Below, piece by piece: positions 1 to 19,611 of a DNA stretch of 40,000 nt. This stretch comes from Haloquadratum walsbyi C23 (GTDB lineage: Archaea; Halobacteriota; Halobacteria; Halobacteriales; Haloferacaceae). The notes beneath the pieces were generated by a model, which worked only from the letters and a program-made list of their open reading frames with translations, had not been told where the DNA came from and searched no databases. The position numbers and the translations under genes are program-made. Where the stretch lies: NCBI RefSeq assembly GCF_000237865.1, contig NC_017459.1, forward strand, positions 568,990 through 608,989, in the 5' to 3' direction. How positions within the stretch are numbered: position 1 is the first letter of the stretch; each line of letters begins with the position of its first letter.

Positions 1-2620
1 TGAGAAATCCGAACCCAACAGCACCAGCAAGCCCGTATGAGAGTAGCCGCCCGCGTGATAATCGCTGATCAAACGCTGATTGTTCCTCTCGTGCTGTTGT
101 TGCTTGTGCTGTTGCCCCAGCTGCGTCAAACTTCTCTGTGGCTTCAGCATACGCCTGTGTGATCATTTGCTGGCGTGCATCAACCCGGTCAAGTGCCCCA
201 ATCCAGAAAATCGGCTGCCCACCAATAGATGTAAGCGTCACTGCTGAAAGATTTGCTTCCGCTTGTCGTGCACGCTGGAGATTATCATTCCCCTCGCTGA
301 CAAGCGTGCTATATCTCTCGAATGCTGTTTGTGACTGCTGTTGGAACTCATTCGCATCATCTGTATTTCCGGTAAGTGCTGCTAATCGCGCTAGTTGACG
401 CTGTGTTTGTGCTGTGGTGAGCACAGCGGTCTCGTTATTCTGTGCACGGTCCTGATAGTATGCCCGCTGTTCATCAATTGCGGTTGCAAGCGATTCATCG
501 GCAGCCGATGCTGCCGTCTCAATTCGATTTTTGACTGGCGTTGTCTCAATTCGGGTTGATGCTGTTTCGAGTGTTCTATACGCTGCCGCTGCCCGAGTAA
601 GTGACCGCTGTGCAGCAGTATAGTTGCCAGCAGCCTGCTGTTCACGCGCGATTGTGATTTGCTCAATGATCAATACTGAACTTCGACCGGCTGCGCTGAC
701 TGTTGTTATATCTCCTCTCGCCGTATCTGATCTTTCATCACTTCCCTCACGAAGTCTGTCTGCTAACGCTTCCATTGCTTCTGCTGATTCTGTTGCAACG
801 ACTGCGCGGTCACTTTCTTCAGGAATATCAGATTCTTGAAGCGATTCGACTGTTGCAGTGAAATCAATCGGTCGGGGAGTCGCTGTAATTGTGATTGTCT
901 CAGTGTCGACATTTGACCCTGTAATTTCATATCTCCATGTATACGTGGTGAAGAACTCCGCTCGCGTATCAAACTGTAATGTGGTCACAAACGGTGCTGA
1001 GTCACCAGCCTCAAGTGATGATGGTCGTTCTTCGACGCGAAGCCACCCACTATCCGGTCCAGACACCTGTTCAATATTGAACCGACGGACATCTTGATAT
1101 CCCAGTCGCTCGCTGATATCGGTACTCCGCGTGACACGCTGGGTTGCAACAACCTGCCCGTATGTCACATCGCTTTGCCCGGCTTCTATGTCCGTCTCGT
1201 GGTCGACAGTCACTGTTGAGGATGTTGTTGTCTGTCCTGGCTCGGCAGCATCGATACTGACGTCAAGCCGCCGATCTCCTTCATCTGCAGTTGCACCAGC
1301 TGCCACCGAGACCTCAACACTCTGTGTTGATTGTGCTGAGATTGTGTCTGGTGCTGAGACAATATCTGCACGCAAACCGCTCCCGCTCACTGACGCATCG
1401 ACATCCTGAATATCCATTGGGAGATCACCACCATTTTCCACAGCGACACGAACAGTCTCACTGAATGACTCACGCTCTGCCTGCGGTTCGTCAAATGAAA
1501 TAATCTTATTACTTGCCCCGACAGCACCGTAGTATGCTGGATATATAACCCGTGCATCAAATCTGAGATTCGCACTCACGCCGTCCGGATCTGCGGGTCG
1601 GAACGTAGCTATCCACTCAAGTTGCTCATATTGTTCAGCATCGTCACTTGCCTGAATTGACACACTTCCATCGTCAGACCCTCCTGCAGAGATTCGATTT
1701 GGCGGTGATAAAGAAAGTGATCCATCCCCACTCCGGCGTGTGTAGTCGACATCAATATCTTCGACTGATTCATCACCACCCTCCTCTCTGAGTGTAAATG
1801 ATTCTTCTGTCGACTCGCCTATGAGAACATCACCAAGATCAATCGTTCGATCCGACGCCGAAAGAACTGGTGCCTTGATAATCGCAACATTAATTCCAAA
1901 TGACTCTGAGCTACCAGTTGAGTCAGAAACTATCACATCAATTGTGTATGTTCCTTCTGAGACCGAGTCTGAGGCGGTGATTTGCGCATTCACCGATTCA
2001 CGAGAGCCCGCTCGAATCTCTCCAGGTGAAGTGAGATCAACACGAATCCCTGATGGGCTATTATCGACTGATGCTGAAATCCCTGTCATAACGCCATCAC
2101 CCACATTTGGTATCTCAACATCAACCGTGGCTGACTCAGTTGATCTACCCTTGAACTTAATTTCAGTGCGCTTTCCATCCACCGACCCAAAGCGTGGCTC
2201 TAACACATTGACATCAACTGAGAGACTCTCAGAATATGATCCGCCACCACTGACATCAACCGTCGGTCTAAAGGAGTATGTTCTTTCGTCTGCACCACTT
2301 CGCGCTGTTGCTCTATATTCAATTGTGTACCGCTGTCCATTCCGAACGGTAAATGAGCTAGCACTCTGTAATTCAAATGTCACGTCACCACCTGCCTGGT
2401 CCTCACTCCGCGGTGTGACACTTGCCGTTCCATTTGCATTCGCGGTGAATGTATAGCTCAATCTCGTTGAATCGCTATCATTGTCTTCAGCTGATTGAAT
2501 CTGTACCGTGCCACTTTCTGCGGCGGTTGCAACACCTCCCGCAGCAATCATCGATATAATGAGAAGAGCAATTACAGCTACCTGCAAAGTGGCACTTTGA
2601 CATCGGCTCAACTCACCCAC
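1..2620 (-). CDS. Large envelope protein, 3' end beyond the left window edge (>=873 aa seen): N-terminal signal/TM anchor, several Ig-like beta-sandwich repeats, long Ala/Gln/Glu-rich helical region, beginning of a C-terminal TM
   Basis: Absent from the supplied ORF track because it is open at the window edge. Hand translation of the minus strand in the frame of GTG 2620..2618 is stop-free to position 1. That GTG overlaps the upstream stop as GTGGGTGA; an alternative TTG lies at 2611. The protein reads VGELSRCQSATLQVAVIALLIISMIAAGGVATAAESGTVQIQSAEDNDSD... and ends ...FDQRLSRGRLLSYGLAGAVGFGFL. Composition is acidic and haloarchaeal. Motifs such as IDLGDVLIGESTEESFTLREEG and EGTYTIDVIVSD resemble PapD/CARDB-type Ig folds. 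No closed minus-strand ORF in this frame is listed, consistent with an ORF leaving the window. Confidence 0.75.
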   Translation of the reverse strand, partial: MGELSRCQSATLQVAVIALLIISMIAAGGVATAAESGTVQIQSAEDNDSDSTRLSYTFTANANGTASVTPRSEDQAGGDVTFELQSASSFTVRNGQRYTIEYRATARSGADERTYSFRPTVDVSGGGSYSESLSVDVNVLEPRFGSVDGKRTEIKFKGRSTESATVDVEIPNVGDGVMTGISASVDNSPSGIRVDLTSPGEIRAGSRESVNAQITASDSVSEGTYTIDVIVSDSTGSSESFGINVAIIKAPVLSASDRTIDLGDVLIGESTEESFTLREEGGDESVEDIDVDYTRRSGDGSLSLSPPNRISAGGSDDGSVSIQASDDAEQYEQLEWIATFRPADPDGVSANLRFDARVIYPAYYGAVGASNKIISFDEPQAERESFSETVRVAVENGGDLPMDIQDVDASVSGSGLRADIVSAPDTISAQSTQSVEVSVAAGATADEGDRRLDVSIDAAEPGQTTTSSTVTVDHETDIEAGQSDVTYGQVVATQRVTRSTDISERLGYQDVRRFNIEQVSGPDSGWLRVEERPSSLEAGDSAPFVTTLQFDTRAEFFTTYTWRYEITGSNVDTETITITATPRPIDFTATVESLQESDIPEESDRAVVATESAEAMEALADRLREGSDERSDTARGDITTVSAAGRSSVLIIEQITIAREQQAAGNYTAAQRSLTRAAAAYRTLETASTRIETTPVKNRIETAASAADESLATAIDEQRAYYQDRAQNNETAVLTTAQTQRQLARLAALTGNTDDANEFQQQSQTAFERYSTLVSEGNDNLQRARQAEANLSAVTLTSIGGQPIFWIGALDRVDARQQMITQAYAEATEKFDAAGATAQATTAREEQSAFDQRLSRGRLLSYGLAGAVGFGFL

Positions 2621-3809
2621 GGAGCATCGCCCCCAGAAGTAATGAATCGCCGCGCGTGGCAGCTGTCATATCACGTTGCCACAAGGCTACCCGCCAGCCG
2701 ATGATTCCGATGATAATCCCAGTAATAGTACTATACCCAAGAATAAGTGTCGTACTCGCGACTGCCAGTGTATCACGCCGTTGGGCAGCAGCTGATTGTG
2801 TTGACTGCACCGTTTCAAGACGCTCTGTCATCTCATGTTTTTCAGCGATTTCGGTTGCTTGGTCCGCGTCATCAACAGCTTCCGTGGCGGATCGATACTG
2901 CTCAAAAACTCCGGCACCGTACGCACTGATCGCGGTTCCTGCTCCATCGCAGTTTGAGCAGGCCGAAATAAATGTCTGCGCTGAAGCGACAGATGCGTTT
3001 AATTCGTCGCGATCGCGCTGAAATGTCTGTTTAAGTCGGTCAACTCGAATAAGTATCTGCGCATATCGTTCTGTTGAACCTGCTCGTTGGTATGCTCGTG
3101 CAGCGTCTTCAAGTGCTTTAATCCGGGTCTCTGTTGCACTGACCGTCTCAGCTCGTGATTGCAATTCTTGGCCAGTATCTGCATAAAACCGATCAATCGA
3201 AACACCAGCTAAGGCAGCGTACTGTCCACCCCCAGCTGTTGAACGTAGTTTTTCACCGACAACTGTGGTATTTTCTGCAGCGCGTATCGCCGCCTCGTAT
3301 TCACCTGCCTGTTGTCGGTCATATGCGGTTGCGAATGTCTGTAACAGATCTAAAACAAGCCGCATCCGTGCTTGTTCAGCAGCGGTGAAATCACCAATCT
3401 GTACGGCAAACACAGCCTGTGATCGAATCACTTCGAACTCGCTATAACTGGTGTACGCGTTGTTTTGCTCAAGTCTGCGGAATGCAGCAAGGTAAGCACC
3501 AGCCGATTGTGGACTATCGCTGGATACACTTACATTATCATCTGTCTGTGTTATTGGTGTCTGATCAAACGTGTTTTGCGTGACTTCATCTGATTGTCCA
3601 TATCCAGACAGTGCTGTTTCTCTTACCGCTTCTACCGGTATCCTCGTCTGGGCCATCGCCGCTCTCCGTTCAACAGTAGGTGCTGTCTTTACAATATCTG
3701 ATTGTGCCGTATTGGTGCTCGTTGCCGTTCCAGCTCCTGGAACAATCCCGGTAAAGGCAAACGCAATAATAACCAGAATGATCGCATAGTTTCTCCAGCA
3801 TGGTGTCAT
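2613..3809 (-). CDS. Membrane protein: N-terminal signal/TM, Ala/Gln/Glu-rich helical region, C-terminal TM anchor; resembles the C-terminal half of the 1..2620 protein
   Basis: ORF track gives 2613..3815 (GTG). The first ATG at 3809 gives MTPCWRNYAIILVIIAFAFTGIV. C-terminal TM is LAVASTTLILGYSTITGIIIGIIGW. Local similarity DRQQAGEYEAAIR (here) vs REQQAAGNYTAAQR (downstream protein). The stop overlaps the next gene's GTG start. Confidence 0.8.
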   Translation of the reverse strand: MTPCWRNYAIILVIIAFAFTGIVPGAGTATSTNTAQSDIVKTAPTVERRAAMAQTRIPVEAVRETALSGYGQSDEVTQNTFDQTPITQTDDNVSVSSDSPQSAGAYLAAFRRLEQNNAYTSYSEFEVIRSQAVFAVQIGDFTAAEQARMRLVLDLLQTFATAYDRQQAGEYEAAIRAAENTTVVGEKLRSTAGGGQYAALAGVSIDRFYADTGQELQSRAETVSATETRIKALEDAARAYQRAGSTERYAQILIRVDRLKQTFQRDRDELNASVASAQTFISACSNCDGAGTAISAYGAGVFEQYRSATEAVDDADQATEIAEKHEMTERLETVQSTQSAAAQRRDTLAVASTTLILGYSTITGIIIGIIGWRVALWQRDMTAATRGDSLLLGAMLRG

Positions 3810-3932
3810 GCCCACACCTCGACGCGTTCATCGACCTCCGATTTCGTCCGCAGTTTCTCCGGTGCACACATATATCGATTCGGATTGTAACGCTGTACGT
3901 AATCGAAATTGATATTCGTTTCTCTACTCATT

Positions 3933-6900
3933 CTAGTATACGGTTCGTTCCATTCGTTCTCGCAGAGGATCGTGTTCAAATAGCTCTTCAACAGCGTTCA
4001 GTAATGCTTCTGCGACAGCAACAAACGCTGCTGATTCTACCTGATCAGTCGTATTTTGATCTCTAACCATTGTTGTTACAGATTCAACCATTTCTCTGGC
4101 AGGTGCAACCTCGGCGACATCACCAACCGCCGATGAAACTGCTTCATCAACCTCTCCAATTTGTTCGTTCACCACACTTCGCTGCTGTCCGATATCCTCG
4201 CGAGCGAGCGATGTAATTCGACTGATATCAACAGACCCACGCCATGTAACCGATACTTCAGCCATGTTCGAGCATGCTGAAAATAAATCGACGTTTCGCT
4301 TTGAGGTCATGACTGATTCCACAGTGTCAGCACTCGTTTCGATGGCATCAAGTAACGACTCTGCAACTGCGTCAGGGCGGGCATTACCACCAGCCGTCAA
4401 GAGCTCATATCCACTCGATGGGATACGCTCAACCGAACGAAGTGCTTTTGCGAGAACACTTGCATAATACAGCGGAATTGCACTATCACGGCGCTCAATC
4501 GATCCTATTTCATCAACACGGCGCTCGAGTTGGCGTCGACGGTTGCTAAGCTCAGATGGAAGTCGATAATCAAATGAAACTGGTAGTTCGATTTGCTCTG
4601 TCTCACCATCGATAACTCTAATTTCTCGTTTACTCTCGGTAAATGCATTATCGTATTCTGAGAGATCCGGTTTGACAGTATATGACCCGACTGGAGTATT
4701 CTTGAATATGACCGAGCCATTTGTATCCGGGTCAAGGACTGCTTTATTACCAGTTTCCTCTCGGATAGCGATAATAGGCACAGTCGAGACTGGTTCATCA
4801 CCAATTGTGATGGTTGCGTGAATCTCTCCAATGAGTTGCCGCATTTGGATATCAACCTGTGCTTGACCCTCTCCGACTGCTACTGTTTGGGTCGTTTTCT
4901 CATATTGATCATGATCAGCAGTTATGTCAACTTCTGATACTGATAATGGCACTTGTTGTCGCCACTGACCGCGCTGATCCGTCTGTCCGCGATAGGATTG
5001 TTTTTGAGAGTTGTCAGTAACTTCAGCTGTTATCTTAGCTCCCGCAATTGGGCTCGGATCCTGAGAACCCGATTGATCAATCGTCTTCACCGCGAGTTGT
5101 TGCCCGTCAAACCTGAGTGTGATACGACTTTCAGTACCGTCCACAGACGCTTTCGCCTGCTTTTGTTGCCCATTAACCACTGCTGTTGCTTGGACATGTC
5201 CCTGCCGCATCGAGATTGTTTCACTTCCACCAGACACAGAAATTAATTTCGAGTTTGACGCTGAGGACGATTGTGGCTTGATTGTGACATCGACTTCTCG
5301 CTCGATTGGAGTACCCGTCGCATCACGTAACTGAATCCGTAATGTGCCTGTTTTGTAGGAGGAAGTAGTCGTCTGTCCTGCTGGCTCCGCTCCAGTTTCA
5401 ACTGAAAGATACGTGATAATCATACTGGAGGTGATAAGTCCATATACGAGCCCATATAATGAATTTTGAATATTACCCAGGTCAATGACTATCGCTGCGA
5501 GCGATATTATCAGCACTACGAGACAGCCCCCAATGATACTAAGCATTGCAGCACCGATATCATCCTCCGCAAGCGATGTCGTCCTCAGTTCGCCCCATCC
5601 AGCAGTAACAGCGACGCTGACGAGCAACGTCGTCAACACTGTCAGTACTAAAGAATCGTTGCTGTACGCCCACCAGCTGAATAGTAATATAAATACAACT
5701 GCGGCAATACCTACACCAATACTAGTCGCACGTGGGAGTGACTGTGTCCGACGCACCACGCTTGCACCACCGAGCACGACGACCCCAAGGACACCACTCA
5801 ACACGAGTAATACCGGATTATCACCCCCGAGAATCGTTGCAATTAGCCCTTCTGAACTGTCGTCGGGTGATTGACCACCTGAGATCTGCGATGCGCCTTC
5901 GCCACTGGATCCAGACGCAATGTTGACATTCCAGATTGTCCCATCTTCATCAACAAGTAAGACGGATTCATTCTCCGGAATCGGATACCCACTTGCGTTA
6001 ATACCCGATGACATACTGGTCACGGAATACTGAGTATAGGAATCATTCTGCGCTATCCAAAGTGTTGCCTGCCCAGATACTTCAGATCCGCCATCCACTA
6101 TAATCTGATCTGTACTAGTATTCCAGGTTGCCGTCTGTCTTTGTGACTGAATATTAATTACGTCGTTCGGGGATCCTCGTCCGTCATATACGATATTTCT
6201 GACTGCTCCATTTTTCTGCTCAATTGTAATACTGAGTGTGTTTGCGAATCGAACTTGTCCAGGGACCGTGAGCGATTGAGTATCGGTAACTTCCTGTGTC
6301 TGTGTGTATGTCCCGTCTGGATTCTTTGTTTGGACAGTCAATGTATACTCTTTACCAGGTGTAATAAGTGGATGCGATATGCTCTGCTGTTGAGCGCTCT
6401 TACTACCGGTGATTTCTGGACGAGGGTTCTGTTCTGTGGTAATCGTGTATTGTTGCGTTGACCCATCCGGCAGAACACGGACATCTATATTACTCGTGAG
6501 TGCGACGCCAGTATCGAGAAACGCTTTCTGTCGGACTACGATTGCACGCTCATCTGAACGATACTCGCCGATAATGGTTTGACTAAGACCGTTTTGAGAA
6601 ATCTGAATCGGGACCTCTGCTTCTGGAACTCCAATCACTGTCGATGAGGGAATTTTGATACCATCAGATGTGATCTGTGGGGTACCATCCCCCTTTTTAA
6701 CATAACGGAGGTCTGCGTTTGTCGATCCAGTCTTGTTCTGATTTACCACAGTCAATGTAATATTAGCAGATTTGAGATTGAGATTCCGATCATTGCTGAT
6801 ATTCCGTATGTTGAATGTAATTGATTGACTCTGATTGAACGAAGTCGGCTTGTTATCAATGACAGTCTGCCCAGCGACGGTGACATTAACTGGCTCTGTC

Positions 6901-7223
6901 CCGTTGATCTCAAATCCTGAGGGCGTGACAGTGACCTCTCCGCTGTTATTATTCACACTCACATCAATCGAGGCAGCCGAGGCAGTTCCGACCCAATCAA
7001 AAGCAACTCCGCCAACAGCAAACACACACACAGCAACAATAATTAAAATGCAGACCCGGCGAGCAATCATCCATACTTGAGTATCAGTATCATCCTCACG
7101 CTGTCTTGGGGGACCCGTCTGCATCTGCTGACCTGATTGTGATTGTGACTGTGGGCATGCTTGAGACGTTTCAGACGATTCGATTGATGCGTGTGGTCGT
7201 GTGTATGGATGCGATGTACTCAT
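3933..7223 (-). CDS. Giant polytopic membrane protein (1096 aa): Gln/Ser-rich N-tail, TM1, sequon-rich beta-rich ectodomain of about 390 aa, 5-TM block, C-terminal region with carboxypeptidase-regulatory/PEGA-like beta-sandwich repeats and a helical tail
   Basis: ORF-track model 3933..7352 overlaps the upstream gene by 125 nt. ATG 7223 lies 4 nt after that gene's stop (TGAgtatATG) and starts MSTSHPYTRPH. TM1 is VCILIIVAVCVFAVGGVAF (about 7000-7075). The TM block NPVLLVLSGVLGVVVLGG...LYGLVYGLITSSMIITYL lies at about 5400-5830. Beta-sandwich motif: GSVIFKNTPVGSYTVKPD. Confidence 0.85.
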   Translation of the reverse strand: MSTSHPYTRPHASIESSETSQACPQSQSQSGQQMQTGPPRQREDDTDTQVWMIARRVCILIIVAVCVFAVGGVAFDWVGTASAASIDVSVNNNSGEVTVTPSGFEINGTEPVNVTVAGQTVIDNKPTSFNQSQSITFNIRNISNDRNLNLKSANITLTVVNQNKTGSTNADLRYVKKGDGTPQITSDGIKIPSSTVIGVPEAEVPIQISQNGLSQTIIGEYRSDERAIVVRQKAFLDTGVALTSNIDVRVLPDGSTQQYTITTEQNPRPEITGSKSAQQQSISHPLITPGKEYTLTVQTKNPDGTYTQTQEVTDTQSLTVPGQVRFANTLSITIEQKNGAVRNIVYDGRGSPNDVINIQSQRQTATWNTSTDQIIVDGGSEVSGQATLWIAQNDSYTQYSVTSMSSGINASGYPIPENESVLLVDEDGTIWNVNIASGSSGEGASQISGGQSPDDSSEGLIATILGGDNPVLLVLSGVLGVVVLGGASVVRRTQSLPRATSIGVGIAAVVFILLFSWWAYSNDSLVLTVLTTLLVSVAVTAGWGELRTTSLAEDDIGAAMLSIIGGCLVVLIISLAAIVIDLGNIQNSLYGLVYGLITSSMIITYLSVETGAEPAGQTTTSSYKTGTLRIQLRDATGTPIEREVDVTIKPQSSSASNSKLISVSGGSETISMRQGHVQATAVVNGQQKQAKASVDGTESRITLRFDGQQLAVKTIDQSGSQDPSPIAGAKITAEVTDNSQKQSYRGQTDQRGQWRQQVPLSVSEVDITADHDQYEKTTQTVAVGEGQAQVDIQMRQLIGEIHATITIGDEPVSTVPIIAIREETGNKAVLDPDTNGSVIFKNTPVGSYTVKPDLSEYDNAFTESKREIRVIDGETEQIELPVSFDYRLPSELSNRRRQLERRVDEIGSIERRDSAIPLYYASVLAKALRSVERIPSSGYELLTAGGNARPDAVAESLLDAIETSADTVESVMTSKRNVDLFSACSNMAEVSVTWRGSVDISRITSLAREDIGQQRSVVNEQIGEVDEAVSSAVGDVAEVAPAREMVESVTTMVRDQNTTDQVESAAFVAVAEALLNAVEELFEHDPLRERMERTVY

Positions 7224-7227
7224 ATAC

Positions 7228-8460
7228 TCACCCAGAATTATCCGAAAGATAATCCTCAAGATTCTGTTTGATCTGTCGAAATCGTCGCGGCGGGAATGTC
7301 TCTCCCTCAAGACTATCGACCTCACTTGAGAGACCGCTGTCTGTCGCCTCATCCATCATTCGTTCGAATTTTGACCATGAGACATCTAATAGTGGATCAA
7401 GATCGAACCCACCGAATAATAACAGCACATCGATACTATCTCGACGAGACTGATGTGGTGTGAGCGTCGGCATCTGATGAACAACATTATCCATCCCATT
7501 GCTTGCAAGCCACCGTTGGAGGCGACGTTCAAGACCAGCCTCTGAGTATTCACCACTATCGATTGCGTGTTGTGGGACCCGAACAATCGCGTACACAACT
7601 TTTGCGGTAGCCGGATCCATTGGTATAAAAAGATTATCTGCGGCTTTATCAAAAAGCAATTCTAACTCAAATATTGATGGCTGCTCCATGGCAGTCCCGG
7701 CAGTAAAATGATATTCATCAAGCCGCCGTGGCCATGCAATAAGATCTCGAACGTCGACCACACTGTACGTCTCTCGACCAGCGCTAATCATCATATCAAC
7801 TGCTTCAATCGCATTTCGATTAACCGTCTCATGACGACTTTCGTCATCCTCTCCAAGTTCTTCATCGTTTGAGACATGTGAGTTTGAGATTAATAATACC
7901 ATCTCAGCGTTTTGACTCCCATCATACCATCGAAGTAACCGTGAAAGTCCGGAAACAGCATTAAAATGACGTTGCCCTCCCTCAAAATCATATGGCCATG
8001 CCGCGAGAGCAACATGCGTGACATCGCGCATCGCATTTGTTGGTGGGTTATTTTTCAAACTATCAATAATATATGGCACTGAGCCATTCCCTGTCCCGCC
8101 GCCAAGAGTCGTCATATAGAGAAATGCATCTGCTTCATCAACCCCACCAGTGGTGATTGCCTCTGTAATTCGTGTTTCATCAACTGCAGCGCATTGCTCA
8201 CCACCAGGGAAGTAATTTCCAACACCGTCGAGCGGACCGAACTCAAGCGTGTGATCAGCTCTAATATCCTGAATGTCGATTGTATTCTGTTCAATACGGT
8301 CAATTGTGTTTGCGATGTCTGCGCGATTCGTGTTCATGACTAATACCCGGTCATCGATTCCAGGATTCTCAGTGCGACTGAACAGTGTCGATGCCATCCG
8401 GCCACCCCCCTCACCCGATGCGAGAACGGCCCAGCGCGTGTACGTGTCTGATTGGGACAT
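7228..8460 (-). CDS. Divergent tubulin/FtsZ/CetZ-superfamily GTPase, paralogue 3 (410 aa)
   Basis: T1-like SGEGGGR (8398..8418). T4 signature TLGGGTGNG (8083..8109). T3-like GVGNYFPGG. WPYDFEGGQRHFNAVSGL matches the CetZ pattern LPxxxEGxxxxxNA. T7-like VVDVRDLIA. ATG start; a TATA-like box lies upstream. Confidence 0.8.
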   Translation of the reverse strand: MSQSDTYTRWAVLASGEGGGRMASTLFSRTENPGIDDRVLVMNTNRADIANTIDRIEQNTIDIQDIRADHTLEFGPLDGVGNYFPGGEQCAAVDETRITEAITTGGVDEADAFLYMTTLGGGTGNGSVPYIIDSLKNNPPTNAMRDVTHVALAAWPYDFEGGQRHFNAVSGLSRLLRWYDGSQNAEMVLLISNSHVSNDEELGEDDESRHETVNRNAIEAVDMMISAGRETYSVVDVRDLIAWPRRLDEYHFTAGTAMEQPSIFELELLFDKAADNLFIPMDPATAKVVYAIVRVPQHAIDSGEYSEAGLERRLQRWLASNGMDNVVHQMPTLTPHQSRRDSIDVLLLFGGFDLDPLLDVSWSKFERMMDEATDSGLSSEVDSLEGETFPPRRFRQIKQNLEDYLSDNSG

Positions 8461-8491
8461 ATATATCGGTATACGTGCAGTGTGTAGTTGT

Positions 8492-8498
8492 ATTTATA
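8492..8498 (-). promoter_or_regulatory. TATA-like box (TATAAAT on minus strand) upstream of tubulin-like gene 7228..8460
   Basis: TATAAAT lies 31 nt upstream of ATG 8460, in an AT-rich 400-bp non-coding stretch. Confidence 0.4.
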
Positions 8499-8869
8499 TG
8501 TGTGCTCGATGTCAACTGCGATTGCGTCTTAGTATCGTTGTTGGTTTGATTGCGTTTTTTATTTTGTCTGTGTTCTTGCTGCAGATGGATATCACAAAGC
8601 AAGGTTCAATATCTCACATAATAGCCGATCCTGTCGGCATATCGATATCCAGAGTGGCTTCTTGAAGTAACCTACTGATGATACTGCTGTCTGGATTGCT
8701 ACCGTGTCGGCTTACTTCCAAATAGTCATTATCCATATACACGATGATGAGTTAATCCGAATGGTATTCGCTGATATATATTTTCGATTCGTATCATCAT
8801 ATATACATTTTTAATTCAGTGCTAACTCATTGATGCATATAATTACATGCGAACGTGTATATGTAAGTC

Positions 8870-9100: not shown

Positions 9101-9154
9101 AATAGAAATCATGTGTGCATTTTTATGTTATTCTCAACGACAGTATGAAGTAGC

Positions 9155-12369: not shown

Positions 12370-12638
12370 AGCTGATTATCCCAGTACAGAAACACACCAA
12401 TACTCCCAAGAATGCTCCCGATGCCTGCTCCGAGGAGTACACCAGCCCCAATATGTTGTATTGTTTGTTGGCTTGTCTTCACCGCTGCAAGCACTGATTC
12501 TGTCTGCATTTGCATGGTTGATGCGCTCGGTGGTGCTGCACCAGCAACAGGATCTGGTGTGAGAGCAATTATTACGCCTACACAAACAAATATACCAACA
12601 GTGACGACCATCCCAATGGTAATCGGTTCACGTCTCAT
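12366..12638 (-). CDS. Small two-TM membrane protein (90 aa)
   Basis: The ATG shares one base with the stop of the upstream tubulin-like gene (TGATG), and its own stop overlaps the next start (ATGA). TMs are ITIGMVVTVGIFVCVGVIIAL and IGAGVLLGAGIGSILGSIGVFLY. Confidence 0.75.
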   Translation of the reverse strand: MRREPITIGMVVTVGIFVCVGVIIALTPDPVAGAAPPSASTMQMQTESVLAAVKTSQQTIQHIGAGVLLGAGIGSILGSIGVFLYWDNQL

Positions 12639-13927
12639 CAGGCAATCACCGCGTCTGATTCCGTTTCATATTCTTCTGCAAGCGTCTCTAATTCAGTAAG
12701 TCGCTCAAGATCCTCTCGTCGATATGTAAATAAAGTTGTGAATGAAACCAAACTTCGATTTGTCAATGTTGCACCAAGATTCACCTCATCACATCGGGCA
12801 TGGAGAAATGACCGCAACGTCGATGTCTGAATTTGGTAGTCTGTATCAGCAATATACGTCGAAGGTGCACGCAACAGTCCAATTGCCTTTCGTGCCTCCC
12901 GTGTATCGACGTCTGCAACAGTTTGTTTTAGTTCAGCGACTTGTGAGAGTGCTGTTGCATCAATCTCATTTTGTCCAATAAACGGCAATAGATATCCAGC
13001 GAGTGATTTCGTCATCTCCACCGACCGACCCATCGACGCGTATCCGGTTTCGGTATCCTCCCCCAGACCGAATGAAAGGCTCGTTACGATATCTTGAATA
13101 TCAATAATTGGTGGATCAACATCATATTCGCTCCGATCAATCCGCTCAAGAACAGTCCCTGAAATGAGACTCACAATTGCAGAGGCGACGTATTCGTTTA
13201 GATCCGTGAACTGTCCCTCTGCGGCTTCATGATATGAAAGCCGTTCATTATCAATGAGGATGATGCCATCTGCAACCTGCTCAATCTGATTGAGTCCATA
13301 GCGAGCATTCCAGGCTTGTCGACTCGGTGAAGCGCCCTCATCAGATTCATTATTGACCGTCCCAACCGGACCCTGAGTATTTGGAAGCACACAGACCGCG
13401 ATTGTTTTGCATGTTCCGCCGGTGTACTCATCAATCGCATCGATAATATGTGCAGTGATTCCACACCCTGTTCCGCCACCAAGTCCACAGAACACAAACG
13501 CAAACGGTACGTTCGTTTCCTCAGTTTCGACCACTGGGTCTGTCGCTGTTGTTCCGGTATCATCCTCTGAGCTATCACCAGTATTCACCGTCTCTTCTTC
13601 GAATTTAATCTGCTCTGTCAATTCATCATACAATGTATTATCAAGCGCTGCCCGGTTATTCGTGATTACCTCATCAGCTCGAACCGGATTGCGCCCGAAT
13701 CCACCTGTCACCTGCTCTTCGAATCCATCTGTCGTTCCCGGGACCAGTCCTGCACCTTCAGCAATTCCGTACCAACTATTTCGATCGATATTTGTGAGCT
13801 TCCGCAGGTCTCTGACTGTCGAATTGAAAACAAGATGTGTCGCAATCTCATCCATATTATTATGAGCGAATATCTCGTCCACAATAGAACTGCCAGCCTG
13901 TCCTGCACCCACAAAAAGGTATGGCAT
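12638..13927 (-). CDS. Divergent tubulin/CetZ-like GTPase, paralogue 2 (429 aa)
   Basis: T1 GAGQAGS (13889..13909; tubulin/CetZ-type GQAG). T3-like GGFGRNPVRA. T4 GLGGGTGCG (13460..13486). VLPNTQGP...NARYGL and IILIDNERL resemble tubulin DNEAL and CetZ FDNDAW. T7-like PIIDIQDIVTSL. Acidic C-terminal tail EEYETESDAVIA. Confidence 0.85.
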   Translation of the reverse strand: MPYLFVGAGQAGSSIVDEIFAHNNMDEIATHLVFNSTVRDLRKLTNIDRNSWYGIAEGAGLVPGTTDGFEEQVTGGFGRNPVRADEVITNNRAALDNTLYDELTEQIKFEEETVNTGDSSEDDTGTTATDPVVETEETNVPFAFVFCGLGGGTGCGITAHIIDAIDEYTGGTCKTIAVCVLPNTQGPVGTVNNESDEGASPSRQAWNARYGLNQIEQVADGIILIDNERLSYHEAAEGQFTDLNEYVASAIVSLISGTVLERIDRSEYDVDPPIIDIQDIVTSLSFGLGEDTETGYASMGRSVEMTKSLAGYLLPFIGQNEIDATALSQVAELKQTVADVDTREARKAIGLLRAPSTYIADTDYQIQTSTLRSFLHARCDEVNLGATLTNRSLVSFTTLFTYRREDLERLTELETLAEEYETESDAVIA

Positions 13928-14035: not shown

Positions 14036-15751
14036 TCACCCGCGTAACTGCTCGAGTAGCACACTGTATGCTTGACGCTCATATAGCTCCATCACCCAAT
14101 CAAGTGTCTCATCAGCGGCCTGTAAATACCCAATTGCTCGGTCGGTATTCCCTGCTGCTCGTGCATCATCAGCTGCTTCCTGCAGTGAGCTCACGAGTTC
14201 AAGAAAGTGAATTGGGATGCTATGATCGTGTGTTGGATACTCAGAAGGATACTCTGTACGAAGGGTTGATCGCCGTGATTCAATCTCTTCAGCGAGTGTC
14301 TGAACGCTAAGCCCACTGGATTCTCCGGTCGGCGACTGTAGTTCTGGGCATAATGTTCGATCATAAAATCGTAATTCCTGTCGCGCTGCATATACACTTA
14401 CACGATCTGCGGGTCCTGCTTGTGAGACAGTTGATTCAAGCTCAGCAGCGCGATCAGCCAATATTTTCCCAATTGCTGCATCGGTTTTTTGAAACTCAGT
14501 CACGAGTGACCCCGCTAACTCAGCGACAGAATCAGTCTCAACCCCCTCGAGCCGGTCTGCGGTAACAGCGGCTTCATCAATTACTGTCACAGCCGATTGC
14601 AGCGTCTCAGCGTACCTCGAAGCAGCAACATCATCTGCTCGGATCACATCAATCAAACTCTGACTTCGACTACTTTGTGGAGAAATTGCTGCCCGCTCAA
14701 TGACAGTATTGATGTCAGTCAGTGCCGTGGTAAAGGCGACTTCCTCATTCGTTAGCGCCGTGGTGATTTCGTCGAGCGCTAAATCGGGATTGGTGTTTGG
14801 ATCAGCACTAACTGACTCACCAGCCTGCTCACGAACAGCGTTGCATATTTTCTCAATGCTCGTAACCATTGACGCCTGTGTACTATGACACTCATCTCTG
14901 TCAGTAACGACATCTGCAAGTCGTTCGCCAATAATTGTGATTGCTGACCCAGCGTCTCCATCGATTTTGACCCCCTTTTGTTGCAGTGTTTGTGCTAATT
15001 GCTCTGGTTCAACATGCGGTCGTACTGTTGACAGTGCTTGGTGTGTCTCAGCATCGCGCTCAATTCGTTCAACTGCTGTGGTAAGTGTATCGGTTAGTCG
15101 TCGTTCAGCAGTGTTATTTGTCGCTTCAAGATACCGAAGAAGTCGGTTCGCAGTGTCTGTCTGTGGGTCTGTCCGTGCTGACGCTGTTTCAGCTGCATTA
15201 GCTAATAACGCCGAGACTGTCTTGTTAGTTGTTTCTGTTCCTTCAGTCATCTTTGTGTGAGTATTTTCACCACTGGTAGTGTTCGTGTCACTCATCACAA
15301 CACTCACATCATCATGGCTTCCTGTCGTCTCCTGCCCTCCAGGCGACGCGTCGGAACCTGATGCAGTTGGTGGGATCAGCTTATTTTGATCTGCAGCGCG
15401 GAGGATTGCAGTCGCCTGCGTTGATGGATTTGCATTTTGATCAACGATTTCTCGTTCGATCAACCTGGCTTCAGCGACAATCTTATTGATAGCGTCGATG
15501 AAGACGGCAGGATCGTGATTTATCTTACCTATTGATTCTGTTGCTTCTGTTGGTTCTATTGTTTCTGACCCTGAGTCACCTTGCGTGCGAATCCCGATAA
15601 TAAATCCTATGACTCCACCAAGAAATAAAGAAATCACCGCCGACCCAGCAAATAATGCTATATTCTCGACACCGAAATCATTGAGTATGTTGATAACGAC
15701 TACCACACCCTTACCGGAAGCCACTCCTGCATCAACGAGTATATTCATCAT
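14036..15751 (-). CDS. Membrane-anchored acidic alpha-helical protein (571 aa), single clear N-terminal TM
   Basis: ORF-track model 14036..15871 overlaps the upstream gene by 113 nt. ATGATG at 15751 lies 7 nt after that gene's TGA and starts MMNILVDAG. TM is IALFAGSAVISLFLGGVIGFIIGI. The remainder is Asp/Glu/Thr/Ala-rich and helical (e.g. RLLRYLEATNNTAERRLTDTLTTAVERIERDAETHQAL). Confidence 0.85.
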   Translation of the reverse strand: MMNILVDAGVASGKGVVVVINILNDFGVENIALFAGSAVISLFLGGVIGFIIGIRTQGDSGSETIEPTEATESIGKINHDPAVFIDAINKIVAEARLIEREIVDQNANPSTQATAILRAADQNKLIPPTASGSDASPGGQETTGSHDDVSVVMSDTNTTSGENTHTKMTEGTETTNKTVSALLANAAETASARTDPQTDTANRLLRYLEATNNTAERRLTDTLTTAVERIERDAETHQALSTVRPHVEPEQLAQTLQQKGVKIDGDAGSAITIIGERLADVVTDRDECHSTQASMVTSIEKICNAVREQAGESVSADPNTNPDLALDEITTALTNEEVAFTTALTDINTVIERAAISPQSSRSQSLIDVIRADDVAASRYAETLQSAVTVIDEAAVTADRLEGVETDSVAELAGSLVTEFQKTDAAIGKILADRAAELESTVSQAGPADRVSVYAARQELRFYDRTLCPELQSPTGESSGLSVQTLAEEIESRRSTLRTEYPSEYPTHDHSIPIHFLELVSSLQEAADDARAAGNTDRAIGYLQAADETLDWVMELYERQAYSVLLEQLRG

Positions 15752-15758: not shown

Positions 15759-17645
15759 TCACCCCATATTTTCTCGACCAAGACAATCAAACAGTGGCTC
15801 GATTGTTTCCCATGCTTCCCGTAGCTCCTGTGCTTCTTTATTTTCGCTTTGCTCAACAAGCTCTCGCGCATGTTTATACATTCGCTCTAGCGTCGGGAGG
15901 TTTGGATTCCATATGAGCCCCCACAAATAGACATTGTCTACGTGTGGCACAACGAGCTGATTAACATAGATATCAACCGAACTAGGTCCATCATATTGCT
16001 CGCGTGCGAGAAAGTCTTGACCGCTTAGGATTGATGTCAATTCACCATCTTGCAGTAGTGGCTCAAGTTCCTCCATCTTCTCTGCTGGACCATACGCCAT
16101 GAACGTGCCACCCCATGCACTCTTTGGATCAAAATCAACGAGTTGCCCTTGCAGAAGCGTCGATCGTGCAAGTGTATCTAATCGCGCTCTATCGAATCGA
16201 CTGGCACTTGTCGTTCCAATCACTGGCGCCATTACCACAGCGGGAGTGTATGCTCGCTCACTAGCGACGCTATATTTTCGTTGGACTGGGCGAAAACTGT
16301 CTGGAACATCAAACACCTCACCACTAATTCGTTCAGTCCCCGTAGTATCTGCTGACTGTGGTGTTGACGACATCGTAAACGCCTCAAGGAACGTCACCAA
16401 TAGGCGATTTACATCAGTGTACATTGGTGGATTATAATGCTCAAGTGCCGCCTGATCAATATCGACAGCAAAATCGGTTCGCTGTGCATCAAGTTTGCTA
16501 TTATCGAATGGGATGATACCATCAACGTGTTTTGAGAGATATGCCATTCCAACTACCCCACGAACCATCTCTGATGCGCCAAATTCAGTCTCCGACGGAA
16601 GGACCACAGAACTCAAAATTGGCTTCGAAAGTGTCGTTGCGTCTGCAACACCTGTTCCCTCACTCACGAGATTTCGAATATTCTTCGCTAAAACTGGAGT
16701 AGATCCACATCCAGTGCCCTTTGTAACGCTGTGGATCAACATCACAGCCTGTGATGCCTCTAAATCACGCTGGTCAACATCAAGCCGGTCCTTGATTGCA
16801 TTTTTTTCATCCTCAAAATCTTTCTGCATGAGTGTTCGACCAACCTTCCAATTACGCCCTGCACCGCTGTAATTATGATGTCGGTAGCCAATCATCCCAT
16901 TTGTAATGAGTTTTTCTCTTGAAAACGCTCGATCCTGCTGTGCATAAAATGTATTTCCTAACTCCGCAATATTGGTATTCAATCCTGCATAGTCTGCTAG
17001 CCCACCATCCCATACTTGTGCAAGCGGACTATTTTGCTCACGCAGCGTCTCTCGACGGAGTAAAATAGCGTCAAGAATATGATTACCAGCCCCACCGACA
17101 CCAATCATCTGCCATTTATTCCCTGTTGCGCCAACCAGCGGCGTTGACCCAGGGACACTCACACTGTTGTCGACACCCTCGTCACTGATTGCATTCACAC
17201 TCTCACTCTCCAAGCGATTTTGTCCGGCGTCATCACGTATCTCGATAGTGTCGGTCGAATTCGACCCGTTCCCTCTATTTACACTTCGTGTCGACCCCGA
17301 TGATCCTTGATTAGTTGAATTCGATGTTGATTGTGTTAAATTATGTGCTCCTTCCGTATTTGAATTGGTATCACTACTTGCGCTGTCGTTATGATGTGAT
17401 TCACTCTCATTTTGACTTCCAGTGCCTGACGTCGTAATATGTAGTGATGAGTCCTCATCATCGCTATCCGAGCTATCATCGCGATACTGCGGTCGCAACT
17501 CGCCATTGCTATCAAAGATTGTATTATATCGGTCTGCGTATACCTCTTGAACGGATGCTGGTGTTCCTGCATGGTCAGCAGCGATGTGTTCTTCAATACT
17601 TTGCTCATCAATTTCGCGCAGGCAGATTTTGCAATTGTCTGTCAT
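15759..17645 (-). CDS. Zinc-finger-fused divergent tubulin/FtsZ-superfamily GTPase, paralogue 1 (628 aa)
   Basis: N-terminal CKICLREIDEQSIEEHIAADH has the pattern C-x2-C-x11-H-x4-H (17571..17633). Ser/Asn/Asp/Thr low-complexity linker at about residues 55-175. T1 GVGGAGN (17082..17102). T3 GAGRNWKVG (16839..16865; compare tubulin GAGNNWAKG). Degenerate T4 KGTGCGS (16701..16721). VVLPSETEFG...IIPFDNSKL. Starts 6 nt after the upstream stop. Confidence 0.8.
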   Translation of the reverse strand: MTDNCKICLREIDEQSIEEHIAADHAGTPASVQEVYADRYNTIFDSNGELRPQYRDDSSDSDDEDSSLHITTSGTGSQNESESHHNDSASSDTNSNTEGAHNLTQSTSNSTNQGSSGSTRSVNRGNGSNSTDTIEIRDDAGQNRLESESVNAISDEGVDNSVSVPGSTPLVGATGNKWQMIGVGGAGNHILDAILLRRETLREQNSPLAQVWDGGLADYAGLNTNIAELGNTFYAQQDRAFSREKLITNGMIGYRHHNYSGAGRNWKVGRTLMQKDFEDEKNAIKDRLDVDQRDLEASQAVMLIHSVTKGTGCGSTPVLAKNIRNLVSEGTGVADATTLSKPILSSVVLPSETEFGASEMVRGVVGMAYLSKHVDGIIPFDNSKLDAQRTDFAVDIDQAALEHYNPPMYTDVNRLLVTFLEAFTMSSTPQSADTTGTERISGEVFDVPDSFRPVQRKYSVASERAYTPAVVMAPVIGTTSASRFDRARLDTLARSTLLQGQLVDFDPKSAWGGTFMAYGPAEKMEELEPLLQDGELTSILSGQDFLAREQYDGPSSVDIYVNQLVVPHVDNVYLWGLIWNPNLPTLERMYKHARELVEQSENKEAQELREAWETIEPLFDCLGRENMG

Positions 17646-17651: not shown

Positions 17652-19580
17652 TTATGCGTATACTGATTGTAGTTGCTTCATTACTCGTCGTGGGCTCACT
17701 CCATCTGCGACTTCAATAGAGAGGAATCCTGGTGGTGGATTCGATGGAACTGCTACGTGAACTACATCGCCTTGTCGCTCGGCGAATGATTTAATTTCAT
17801 TAAGAACGGCTGATTTGATAAACTTCGCCGGGAGTTGCTCAGTTTGGAGTTCGACAGTGCTTTTTCCACGCTGAGATGCGGCATTCGCTTGCAGTTCACC
17901 AAGCACATACAGCACATCATCATGTGGTACCTCTGCATCTTGGGGGTTACCCCCGGTTAATGCTGCATGTTCACCTGTGCTATCTACCGTCCCACTATAT
18001 TCTGCTCCGGTCGAATTGGTGGTGGCATCGCCTCCAGTAGACTCTGTTTCTGGATTGTTACTCTCTGTTATATTTAACACCCCCTCTGCAACCTCATATT
18101 CAATATAATAACTCTGTTCAAATGGCACGCGTAATCTCTCAACAAGAGTAGCATCGATTGACGATGGGACAGGAATTGAACCGGATCCGTACTCAATCGT
18201 CGCTGTGACGCTTTGACCAAAGAACTCGGCAATTTGAACTATCTCTCTTGCCTCTGTCTCTGCTGCGTCAGCCGATTGTATTGCTGCATCAAATCGACAT
18301 TCATGTAATGTTTTGAGTGCTTCCTCACGATAATCATCAACAGTTGGCTTTGTTGGCAGAGATTCACCAGTCGATGACTCCGGTGTCCGACCTTCGAGGA
18401 GATACGCCTCAAGTCGTTCTTGTGCCGGTCCCTCTAATTCATCAAGATTTGCTGTCGCCGTCTCGATTGCTCTCTGTGCTGCATCTAGTGATTCAGCAAT
18501 AGATTCTTCATGTGTCTGAAGTGTTTGCTCAATCGCATCAAGATGTGTATCAATTGTATCAATTGCCCCAGCAACAGCAGCAAGTCCATCCGGATCCGCT
18601 TCGATCGTTTCGGTAAGTCGAGTTGCTATTTCATGCTGCGATCCCCCAATCTGAATAGTTGGTTCATCAATTGTTGGTAATGAGACCGAGTTGTGCGTCC
18701 GCAGATTTCGGATCGTATACTCACGACTGAATCGTGAAACATAGTGCACATCACTGTATCGTTCGTTAATTTTGTCTTCGACTTGTCGCTCTAATGTAGA
18801 TATTACTCGCGTAGCAGTCTCCCCTGCAACATCATTGAGTTTCGCCGCATCAGCTTGCAGTTGTGCAGCTGTATCATGACGCTCACGACTCGATGTTGAC
18901 CCATCGACAACTGCATCCGCTTCATCCTGAACCGCTTGACACCGATCTCGAAACTCACTGCATTGTGATTCGAACGCTGTGACCGCCTCTGGTGCAATTG
19001 TCTTTAGTGAAGATTGTACCTGTTCGCCCACAACTCGCTCAATTTGACTGTTAAACGTTGTGAGCGCCTCCTGTGTGTCTTCGCGGGCAGTAGATAACGC
19101 CTTTGTAGCCTCTGAATCAAGTGTTATACTCCAATCAAAAACAAGCGATGCTGCCCAACTCATCGCTGCGGTTCCGATAGGGACAAACAAGAACCCAGCA
19201 GTTTGAATCGCTGGGAGCCCTGCGGAAGCAACTGGAAGATACACAAGCTCAAATAACACAAGAAATAGTGTCACAAATCCGGTTGCACCAAGCGTTATGA
19301 CACGATGTCGAAGCGCAAATAATCCAACACCCTGTGCAGTCCATGCAAGTGCAATGAGGACAAATAATATAAAGACAATCGTCGAACTTGACCGGAAAAT
19401 ATTACCTGCGACCCTAAACACAGAAATTGACCATAAAAACCGAGTAAGTGACCCGATCAAGGGAATTACTGTGACTGTCGTCTCAAGCAGCGCGACCGTT
19501 GCCTGCACGAAGGATGCAAGAATTGGCAACCCAGCGACAGCCCAACAGCCTGCCGCAATTCGCCGCCTGTTCTGCAACAT
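17652..19580 (-). CDS. Polytopic membrane protein (642 aa): about 5 N-terminal TMs followed by an acidic, largely alpha-helical region of about 470 aa and a small C-terminal domain
   Basis: ATG start MLQNRRRIAAGCWAVAGLPILASF. Hydrophobic segments run to about residue 165. Helical repeats include AVAGAIDTIDTHLDAIEQTLQTHEESIAESLDAAQRAIETATANLDELEG. First gene of the locus, with a TATA-like box upstream. Confidence 0.85.
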   Translation of the reverse strand: MLQNRRRIAAGCWAVAGLPILASFVQATVALLETTVTVIPLIGSLTRFLWSISVFRVAGNIFRSSSTIVFILFVLIALAWTAQGVGLFALRHRVITLGATGFVTLFLVLFELVYLPVASAGLPAIQTAGFLFVPIGTAAMSWAASLVFDWSITLDSEATKALSTAREDTQEALTTFNSQIERVVGEQVQSSLKTIAPEAVTAFESQCSEFRDRCQAVQDEADAVVDGSTSSRERHDTAAQLQADAAKLNDVAGETATRVISTLERQVEDKINERYSDVHYVSRFSREYTIRNLRTHNSVSLPTIDEPTIQIGGSQHEIATRLTETIEADPDGLAAVAGAIDTIDTHLDAIEQTLQTHEESIAESLDAAQRAIETATANLDELEGPAQERLEAYLLEGRTPESSTGESLPTKPTVDDYREEALKTLHECRFDAAIQSADAAETEAREIVQIAEFFGQSVTATIEYGSGSIPVPSSIDATLVERLRVPFEQSYYIEYEVAEGVLNITESNNPETESTGGDATTNSTGAEYSGTVDSTGEHAALTGGNPQDAEVPHDDVLYVLGELQANAASQRGKSTVELQTEQLPAKFIKSAVLNEIKSFAERQGDVVHVAVPSNPPPGFLSIEVADGVSPRRVMKQLQSVYA

Positions 19581-19605
19581 CTATACACAAACATGTTGAC
19601 GGGGG

Positions 19606-19611
19606 ATAAAA
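19606..19611 (-). promoter_or_regulatory. TATA-like box (TTTTAT) for the first gene of the locus, leaderless geometry
   Basis: TTTTAT ends 25 nt upstream of ATG 19580, in the 414-bp gap between this locus and mutS. Confidence 0.45.

Follow-up and report, generated by a model that had tools for sequence, protein, structure and literature searches.

A cluster of 11 co-directional minus-strand genes in the genome of Haloquadratum walsbyi C23 encodes three tubulin/FtsZ-like GTPases, here called TubA, TubB and TubC, and eight membrane proteins. The genes lie in the first half of the 40,000-nucleotide stretch that we analyzed (contig NC_017459.1, positions 568,990–608,989; this whole stretch is referred to as the window, and coordinates are counted from its first nucleotide) and fall into three modules, G1–TubA–G3 (module 1), TubB–G5–G6–G7 (module 2) and TubC–G9–G10–G11 (module 3). 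The cluster is a real, conserved and coherent system, whose central family had been noticed and named earlier. With slightly better than even confidence, we propose that its products form one envelope-spanning, multi-protein machine that is built on tubulin-like filaments and coupled through the membrane to surface glycoproteins; a machine of filaments plus tethers is the most economical reading of the evidence presented below. To our knowledge, no such envelope-spanning tubulin machine has been characterized in archaea, and we know of no function for archaeal tubulin-family proteins besides FtsZ1, FtsZ2 and CetZ1/2.

Three diverged members of the tubulin/FtsZ superfamily

All three GTPases match Pfam PF00091 (Tubulin) above its gathering score of 33 bits (TubA, 50.2 bits, E 5e-13; TubB, 43.7 bits, E 5e-11; TubC, 40.9 bits, E 4e-10), a threshold also passed by their orthologues and by the Methanoperedens and Halobellus proteins discussed below. 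These profile matches, which far exceed chance expectation, assign TubA, TubB and TubC to the tubulin/FtsZ superfamily, as a first-pass annotation of the window had proposed from nucleotide-binding motifs that are all found in the translations. The FtsZ equivalog model TIGR00065 gave 28.2, 30.5 and 30.1 bits, below the NCBIfam cut-off of 295.2. For Tubulin_2 (PF13809; cut-off 27 bits), TubA and TubB were sub-threshold (18.9 and 15.3 bits) and TubC had no match. Within each of the three family alignments, the T1 and T4 loops, the T6 asparagine and two T7 aspartates (DxxD) are invariant, the exception to the GGGTGxG pattern being the T4 loop of TubA. In FtsZ and tubulin, acidic residues of T7 reach across to the adjacent subunit and make its active site complete, and it is mainly because these residues are conserved that we infer polymerization. 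Each GTPase additionally carries its own distinct, conserved C-terminal motif.

The three proteins are paralogues whose extreme divergence, also noted in the first-pass annotation, leaves them linked only by profile–profile comparison. Pairwise BLAST among TubA, TubB and TubC gave no significant match, and hhalign with orthologue profiles connected all pairs (TubA–TubC, 99.9%, E 6e-35; TubA–TubB, E 1e-16; TubB–TubC, E 4e-16) through alignments of TubA and TubC to each other and to TubB that span both domains. TubC is the closest of the set to TubA by this measure.

A two-domain fold was modeled for TubB (12638..13927), alone of the three. The AlphaFold2 model, built from a 25-sequence alignment (predicted local distance difference test (pLDDT) score 80.6, predicted template-modeling score 0.83), has the complete fold, including helix H7 and the C-terminal domain. 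Its best Foldseek matches in the Protein Data Bank (PDB) are the CetZ structures 3zid, 4b45 and 4b46 from Methanosaeta and Haloferax (E 3e-20 to 5e-18, 17–19% identity), followed by TubZ (E ~1e-17), FtsZ and tubulins; E values range overall from 1e-20 to 1e-16, and the full-length matches have target-normalized template-modeling scores of 0.6–0.79. The GLGGGTGCG motif, N227, D276 and D279 are invariant among TubB orthologues, and in the model D276 and D279 sit between H7 (residues 240–260) and H8 (277–283), the position of the T7 loop. TubB also has an acidic disordered insert (112–137) and an acidic C-terminal helix. TubC (7228..8460) is the paralogue nearest CetZ by sequence profile: its best PDB match is Haloferax volcanii CetZ1 (4b46, E 3.8e-14), over the N-terminal domain only. 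Its invariant elements are GEGGG, LGGGTGNGS, D236 and D239.

TubA (15759..17645) is built of a zinc-finger-like N-terminus, a disordered linker, the tubulin/FtsZ core and a C-terminal peptide. The N-terminal C-x2-C-x11-H-x4-H motif (17571..17645, residues 1–25) has the spacing of a classical C2H2 zinc finger, and C5, C8, H20 and H25 are invariant in 21 orthologues. A linker of ~150 residues rich in Ser, Asn and Asp separates this motif from the core, in which T1 reads GGAGN and T7 contributes D446 and D449 (21 orthologues); the C-terminal peptide, LFxCLGRENM, is strongly conserved. A single-sequence HMMER scan of 1.84 billion representatives with TubA returned only 53 clusters at E ≤ 1e-3, and the strong matches among them, leaving aside the weakest, are full-length TubA relatives and not canonical FtsZ.

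Membrane proteins with predicted domains on both sides of the membrane

Each of the eight non-GTPase products has hydropathy-predicted transmembrane segments, in line with the first-pass description of all of them as membrane proteins, and none matches a Pfam or NCBIfam family above threshold. Topology was assigned from hydropathy, the positive-inside rule and the density of N-glycosylation sequons, which are mutually consistent. Large helical or beta-sandwich domains are predicted in the cytoplasm for four partners (G1, G3, G7 and the C-terminal half of G9), and Ig-like or helical domains are predicted outside the cell for four (G6, the N-terminal part of G9, G10 and G11). G9 is the sole partner predicted to have large domains on both sides of the membrane. 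Sequons occur at 0.8–1.4 times expectation in the acidic cytoplasmic group of G1, G3 and G7, with values of 0.80 for G1 (35 orthologues) and 0.98 for G7. The G9 ectodomain reaches 3.0 times expectation and the C-terminal half of the same protein 1.04 times (36 orthologues); G10 stands at 1.74 times expectation, and the window copy of G6 has an observed density of 28 sequons per 1,000 residues.

On the predicted cytoplasmic side, G1 (17652..19580) is polytopic, with four or five N-terminal transmembrane segments followed by an acidic helical tail of ~494 residues, and G3 (14036..15751) has an N-terminal transmembrane hairpin followed by an acidic helical tail of ~514 residues. For G1, no Pfam, NCBIfam or PDB family scored above threshold. 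A ZorA/MotA-like motor was considered for this protein and rejected: the sole lead was an 18.7-bit NCBIfam match in the coiled-coil tail, PADLOC found nothing, and a PDB profile search gave only sub-threshold coiled-coil or chance matches. G3, which also matches no Pfam or NCBIfam family, keeps its position in ~30 loci with 27–45% identity outside Haloquadratum and 80% in strain J07HQW1. We note separately a weak Zn_Ribbon_1 match in the G3 orthologue of Natronomonas moolapensis.

G7 (9155..11251) has a transmembrane hairpin flanked on both sides by Arg-rich stretches and a predicted cytoplasmic domain of ~650 residues. Its AlphaFold2 model (pLDDT 83.4) combines bundles of long helices with a prealbumin/CnaB-like beta-sandwich and an alpha/beta domain at the C-terminus; PDB matches are limited to the beta-sandwich and are weak (E ≥ 2.7e-3). 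The helical region was compared with EzrA, spectrin and syntaxin-like proteins by Foldseek and profile searches, and nothing significant emerged. We regard G7 as a candidate filament tether or regulator.

G9 (3933..7223) consists of an N-terminal transmembrane segment, a 378-residue, sequon-rich Ig-like ectodomain, a bundle of about five transmembrane segments and a predicted cytoplasmic region of 509 residues that contains CarboxypepD_reg/CnaB-like beta-sandwiches and a conserved helical C-terminal domain. The CarboxypepD_reg match scores 27.6 bits, below its 32.3-bit cut-off; the matches of the orthologues are recorded without a weak mark, and the G9 profile matches the CnaB-type protein 6fwv in the PDB (E 9e-7). 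An assignment of the N-terminus (residues ~15–125) as an archaeal pilin (Pilin_N, DUF973) reached only E 0.02–0.2 and is probably not meaningful.

G5 (12366..12638) is a 90-residue protein with two transmembrane segments; sequence similarity is lost at this position, and an open reading frame (ORF) of 78–126 residues is found there in about two-thirds of the loci inspected. G6 (11248..12369) has a signal-anchor, a 250-residue sequon-rich ectodomain in which a beta-rich part precedes a helical part, and two C-terminal transmembrane segments with a Lys/Arg-rich loop between them. Most loci have a positional equivalent of 333–445 residues, and the Methanoperedens equivalent has the same layout. 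G10 (2613..3809) has a signal sequence, a helical ectodomain of ~317 residues, a C-terminal transmembrane segment and a short basic tail predicted to be cytoplasmic; it is 29–51% identical in genera outside Haloquadratum. G11 (1..2620) is cut by the window edge, and its full length of 906 residues was taken from a 100%-identical metagenome contig, L049 (3598..6318). It has a signal sequence, several Ig-like domains with sub-threshold Pfam matches (HYDIN/VesB-like, PKD, NPCBM_assoc), a helical domain, a C-terminal transmembrane segment and a short tail.

Profile comparison of the partners reveals partial paralogy between modules. G1 and G7 share weak profile similarity (hhalign 85%, E 6e-6), the beta-sandwich of G7 is homologous to that of G9 (91.6%, E 8e-7), and the helical ectodomain of G10 is homologous to the C-terminal part of G11 (78%, E 2e-5). 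In searches of Pfam, NCBIfam, PADLOC and PDB profiles, no partner resembled SepF, CdpA, FtsA, ZipA, EzrA, ZorA or a defense component.

Gene coupling and a Haloquadratum-specific spacer

The 11 consecutive genes lie exactly where the first-pass annotation listed them or within a few codons. Internal start codons are plausible for G7, G9 and G3, and the start of G7 at 9155..11251 fits the orthologue consensus MKSSxxTxAG. Overlaps of 1–8 nt or gaps of a few nucleotides join G1–TubA–G3, TubB–G5–G6–G7 (the start of G5 overlaps the TubB stop codon), TubC–G9 and G10–G11, and for this reason we consider the genes to be translationally coupled. Wider gaps separate G3 from TubB (108 nt), G7 from TubC (694 nt) and G9 from G10 (~120 nt). 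The window as a whole has a G+C content of ~48%, in keeping with H. walsbyi.

The 694-nt spacer between G7 and TubC (8461..9154) is non-coding and specific to Haloquadratum, G7 and TubC abutting in other genera. Its AT-rich part (8461–8880) is 71% identical in strain J07HQW1; the GC-richer part (8880–9154) is absent from that strain and is therefore an insertion. No Rfam family matches the spacer, whose RNA fold exceeds shuffled controls modestly in stability (z = −2.2); an internal promoter probably lies within it.

Distribution and an ancestral two-tubulin core

Two peptide patterns from TubB, scanned against one genome for each GTDB species, yielded 42 loci. By tblastn with the 11 window proteins, the full gene order is present in about 30 of the 42, in more than 15 genera, including Haloarcula, Halovenus, Halorussus, Halorubellus, Halopenitus, Halolamina, Halobaculum, Haloarchaeobius, Haloparvum, Natronomonas, Halobiforma, Halorubrum, Halanaeroarchaeum and Natrinema. 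The linkage of the GTPases to membrane-protein genes, which the first-pass annotation had seen at one locus, is thus conserved in ~30 genomes. Outside Haloquadratum, partners are ~24–53% and tubulins 42–79% identical, and the gene order persists where partners drop to 25–35%; the similarity of G5 and G6 is undetectable across genera, yet ORFs that match them in size and topology remain at their positions. In Halosimplex rubrum, for instance, the same order reads 629, 606 (Tubulin), 542, 407 (Tubulin), 93, 356, 701, 413 (Tubulin), 1100, 344 and 962 residues.

The three modules are not equivalent, as had first been supposed: module 1 is optional. A two-tubulin form that lacks G1–TubA–G3 and shows the same membrane-protein layouts as the three-tubulin cluster is found in Halobellus sp. 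Atlit-31R (L041) and in two metagenome-assembled genomes of Candidatus Methanoperedens (L033 and L042). Because this form occurs in both lineages, we conclude that TubB–G5–G6–G7–TubC–G9 plus G10–G11 is the ancestral core and that module 1 is a later addition. The Halobellus locus is preceded by genes for an aminotransferase and an SBF-family transporter. In the Methanoperedens loci, the G10- and G11-like genes are divergently oriented, and TubB scores at most 25.9 bits against Tubulin_2, compared with the cut-off of 27. Upstream of these loci we also observed two genes for secreted, membrane-anchored PQQ_2 proteins and a GCS2-family gene.

Flanking genes vary between genomes. Most copies are chromosomal, and one full copy lies on the 742-kb plasmid p1 of Natrinema sp. 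74 (L026). TubB of H. walsbyi, a member of the Haloferacaceae, is 77% and 64% identical to Haloarculaceae copies, compared with 52% to the copy of Halopenitus. The megaplasmid copy and the closer affinity of the H. walsbyi copy to those of Haloarculaceae than to those of its own family suggest horizontal transfer. We read the cluster as a horizontally spreading accessory trait, not as a housekeeping system of shape or division.

A proposed envelope-spanning machine

In the machine that we propose, each GTPase would polymerize at the inner face of the membrane. G1, G3, G7 and the C-terminal half of G9 would hold its filaments there with their large helical and beta-sandwich domains in the cytoplasm, and docking probably occurs through the conserved C-terminal peptide particular to each GTPase. 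G9 and the short cytoplasmic tails of G6, G10 and G11 would couple these filaments to the glycosylated Ig-like or helical surface proteins. As a consequence of that coupling, filament assembly or GTP-driven turnover could position, cluster or move surface components, much as FtsZ or MreB filaments use bitopic adaptors to organize envelope machinery outside the cell. Remodeling or disassembly of the complex is probably the task of two products of a neighboring convergent operon described below, a Cdc48-like AAA+ ATPase and a cytoplasmic beta-propeller protein.

Several points weigh against this proposal. We infer both polymerization and contact between GTPases and partners from sequence and architecture. 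The T4 loop of TubA is atypical, with TKGTGCG in place of GGGTGxG, and in the PDB the TubA profile has only marginal matches to FtsZ and BtubA (E 2e-4 to 9e-4). Topology was derived from simple hydropathy and sequon statistics, without dedicated predictors; G11, predicted to be external, shows no sequon enrichment (0.51 times expectation, n = 10), and CnaB/transthyretin-type beta-sandwiches are unusual in the cytoplasm. Relatives of the helical domains could not be detected, so that the case for them as tethers is one of architecture. Finally, the AAA+/PQQ_2 operon is absent beside the cluster in Halopenitus persicus, and the PQQ_2 proteins of Methanoperedens are secreted, not cytoplasmic.

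The cluster offers an unusually complete parts list: three GTPases with distinct putative docking motifs at the C-terminus, four candidate tethers, one protein with large domains on both sides of the membrane, three more surface proteins and a linked AAA+ ATPase. Some of the genera that carry it contain genetically tractable species (Halorubrum, Natrinema and Haloarcula among them), and the two- and three-tubulin versions provide a natural series for the origin of multi-paralogue tubulin systems. If coupling across the membrane takes place, a prokaryotic cytoskeleton would be influencing the cell surface in a new manner.

Relationship to known tubulin systems

The cluster is not wholly new, and the suggestion in the first-pass annotation that its GTPases form an undescribed clade is not supported. 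TubA is WP_014555346.1, which belongs to the 'Halo.Tub' data of Santana-Molina et al. 2023 (PMC9871819) and is a top match of the Halo.Tub C-terminal hidden Markov model there (Halo.Tub-C.out, E 3e-121). TubB is named 'FtsZ family protein, noncanonical' in one source, as is the Natronomonas orthologue of TubC. In PMC9871819, Halo.Tub is a group of Halobacterota placed unstably between CetZ and tubulins and termed 'CetZ-like'; it falls outside CetZ in trees, its C-terminal model matches no other family, and quasi-tandem copies and coiled-coil neighbors are already noted. Brown & Duggin 2023 (PMC9856176) mention uncharacterized 'non-canonical TSF proteins' (TSF, tubulin superfamily). As far as the consulted text of the two papers goes, they deal with phylogenetic placement, and the 11-gene architecture, the three paralogue families, the topology, the two-tubulin core, the AAA+/beta-propeller operon and a proposal for function are not described. 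We found no functional, structural or gene-cluster study in the literature, and two H. walsbyi transcriptome papers that were searched do not mention the cluster genes.

The cluster belongs to neither FtsZ nor FtsZl1, is not a TubZ partition system and probably falls outside CetZ. Like CetZ, its GTPases are archaeal members of the tubulin superfamily that stand apart from division FtsZ, and CetZ is the nearest solved relative of both TubB and TubC. Identity is only 17–19% for TubB, however, and for TubC the profile match is confined to the N-terminal GTPase domain. CetZ binds the membrane through its own C-terminal amphipathic helix, whereas the cluster has dedicated membrane-protein genes. 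In published trees (PMC9871819) the Halo.Tub group falls, unstably, outside CetZ, and neither its C-terminal model nor its gene context is related to that family. Synteny in ~30 genomes and translational coupling rule out ordinary CetZ paralogues with chance neighbors.

FtsZ with its anchors (SepF and CdpA in archaea; FtsA, ZipA and EzrA in bacteria) and MreB–RodZ offer the model for how the cluster might work: adaptors that recognize a conserved peptide at the C-terminus of a cytoplasmic cytomotive filament keep it at the membrane, and the filament organizes machinery on the external side. The cluster partners bear no sequence relation to those adaptors. Besides the cluster, its halobacterial carriers normally possess canonical FtsZ1 and FtsZ2, and H. 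walsbyi expresses both ftsZ1 and ftsZ2.

A further comparison is with FtsZl1 (PF13809; Makarova & Koonin 2010, PMC2875224), which is likewise highly diverged, shares its operons with genes for membrane-associated and coiled-coil proteins and has been given a putative role at membranes. FtsZl1 carries a fused coiled coil and has neither a recognizable T6–H7 nor the C-terminal domain, and its operons, for which membrane remodeling has been proposed, include vWA, protein kinase and P-loop GTPase neighbors. TubB, in contrast, has H7, T7 and a C-terminal domain, and the cluster has none of those neighbors; FtsZl1 and FtsZl2 (PMC2875224) differ from it in both anatomy and gene context. Membership in FtsZl1/Tubulin_2 is ruled out by this different anatomy and by the sub-threshold scores.

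Alternative explanations

A bolder version of the machine, which we offer tentatively, is a self-contained, envelope-spanning tubulin machine formed by the cluster and the neighboring AAA+/beta-propeller operon, in which two or three co-evolving paralogues, possibly as heteropolymers, would assemble on dedicated transmembrane couplers, and GTP dynamics together with the Cdc48-like unfoldase would move, pattern or extrude surface glycoproteins. BtubA/BtubB/BtubC and alpha/beta-tubulin give a precedent for several co-encoded, co-evolving paralogues, and heteropolymers are possible on that likeness. The relation to these proteins is remote, however (TubA profile to BtubA, E 9e-4), and unlike them all three GTPases of the cluster keep the T7 acidic residues. 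If true, prokaryotes would possess an equivalent of 'microtubule plus MAPs plus remodelling ATPase' (MAPs, microtubule-associated proteins) that acts across a membrane.

The same machine could instead serve another purpose, as a mobile accessory surface module for cell–cell contact, adhesion, intercellular bridges, vesicles or conflict and defense and not for envelope or shape; the Ig-like ectodomains would then be adhesins or receptors, with the tubulins driving membrane remodeling beneath. The patchy distribution, the copy on the 742-kb Natrinema plasmid, the flanks that differ between genomes and the affinity of the H. walsbyi copy to those of Haloarculaceae all fit such a module, as do the adhesin-like Ig/CnaB folds of the ectodomains and the membrane remodeling proposed for FtsZl1 operons (PMC2875224). 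We nonetheless consider it unlikely: no integrase, transposase or toxin genes occur within the cluster, and the sequences single out none of these functions. Matches in PADLOC-DB v2 are only generic (JetC and LmuB coiled coil, 18 bits; IetA and TRIP13 AAA), and a known defense system is ruled out by this negative result. No relatives were found in IMG/VR viral contigs, and a viral origin was rejected on that ground.

Less probable again is a reading without filaments, in which the three proteins would be GTPase switches or obligate small oligomers that regulate a membrane complex, as has been raised for FtsZl1. Their extreme divergence, visible in the 53 matches of the TubA scan, the atypical TubA T4 loop and the long inserts in the T2–T3 region of TubB and ahead of the TubA core are in keeping with switches. 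Against them, all three families keep their T7 acidic residues without exception, and a protein that never contacts the nucleotide of a neighbor does not need T7 acids; TubB, moreover, has the complete C-terminal domain and helix H7 that FtsZl1 lacks.

We consider it very improbable that the cluster segregates the DNA of a plasmid or integrated element in the manner of TubZ. In favor of this reading, TubB has TubZ among its best structural matches, one copy of the cluster is on a megaplasmid, and the zinc-finger-like motif of TubA could bind nucleic acid; like TubZ/TubR/tubC and phage PhuZ, the cluster also represents accessory tubulin homologues outside cell division. Unlike those systems, it has no TubR, centromere repeats or viral relatives, and its partners are membrane proteins, which make up 8 of the 11 products. 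No DNA-binding family was found among the products with Pfam or NCBIfam, no iteron, centromere-like or tandem repeat arrays occur in or upstream of the cluster, and most copies are chromosomal with unrelated flanks. A TubZRC type III partition system is ruled out by the lack of both TubR and iterons.

Least credible is the guess in the first-pass annotation that the cluster determines the flat, square Haloquadratum shape: although it is present and intact in H. walsbyi and CetZ proteins control haloarchaeal shape (PMC9856176), distribution rules this out, with the same cluster in more than 15 other, non-square genera and in Methanoperedens and an H. walsbyi copy that looks horizontally acquired. 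The carrier genera are rod-shaped or pleomorphic.

A convergent AAA+ operon beyond the window, and other features inside it

Beyond the left edge of the window, the cluster is met by an operon of five genes in convergent orientation (positions 6278..15218 of contig L049, on its minus strand), the 3′ end of its last gene overlapping the end of G11. It encodes proteins of 368, 354 and 321 residues, a 572-residue AAA+ ATPase and a 1321-residue PQQ_2 beta-propeller protein without a signal sequence. The ATPase matches PF00004 with 97 bits, and its best PDB relatives are VAT, Cdc48 and p97 (E ~1e-41). The earlier statement that the locus holds no other enzyme or ATPase is accurate inside the window only, because this operon lies just past its edge. 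A convergent PQQ_2 gene lies downstream of the cluster in seven of the eight genomes examined, accompanied by the AAA+ gene wherever the fetched sequence reaches; the AAA+ orthologues are 57–66% and the PQQ_2 proteins 22–30% identical.

The whole window gave no tRNA match and no Rfam match. Outside the cluster, several ORFs were assigned by eye. A 564-residue ORF (28190..29884, minus strand) appears to fuse a NAD kinase-like N-terminal half to an inositol-monophosphatase-like C-terminal half. A stretch of ~650 nt without a convincing ORF (30750..31400) is flanked by a 133-residue RidA/YjgF-like ORF (30137..30538) on one side and by a 410-residue multi-pass, transporter-like membrane protein (31408..32640) on the other. 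Four minus-strand ORFs at 32988..37890 resemble an operon for a phosphate ATP-binding cassette (ABC) transporter, arranged as pstS-pstC-pstA-pstB. For its ATPase gene, the longest ORF starts with a GTG at position 34190 and shares ~290 nt with the preceding gene; this ORF probably extends too far.

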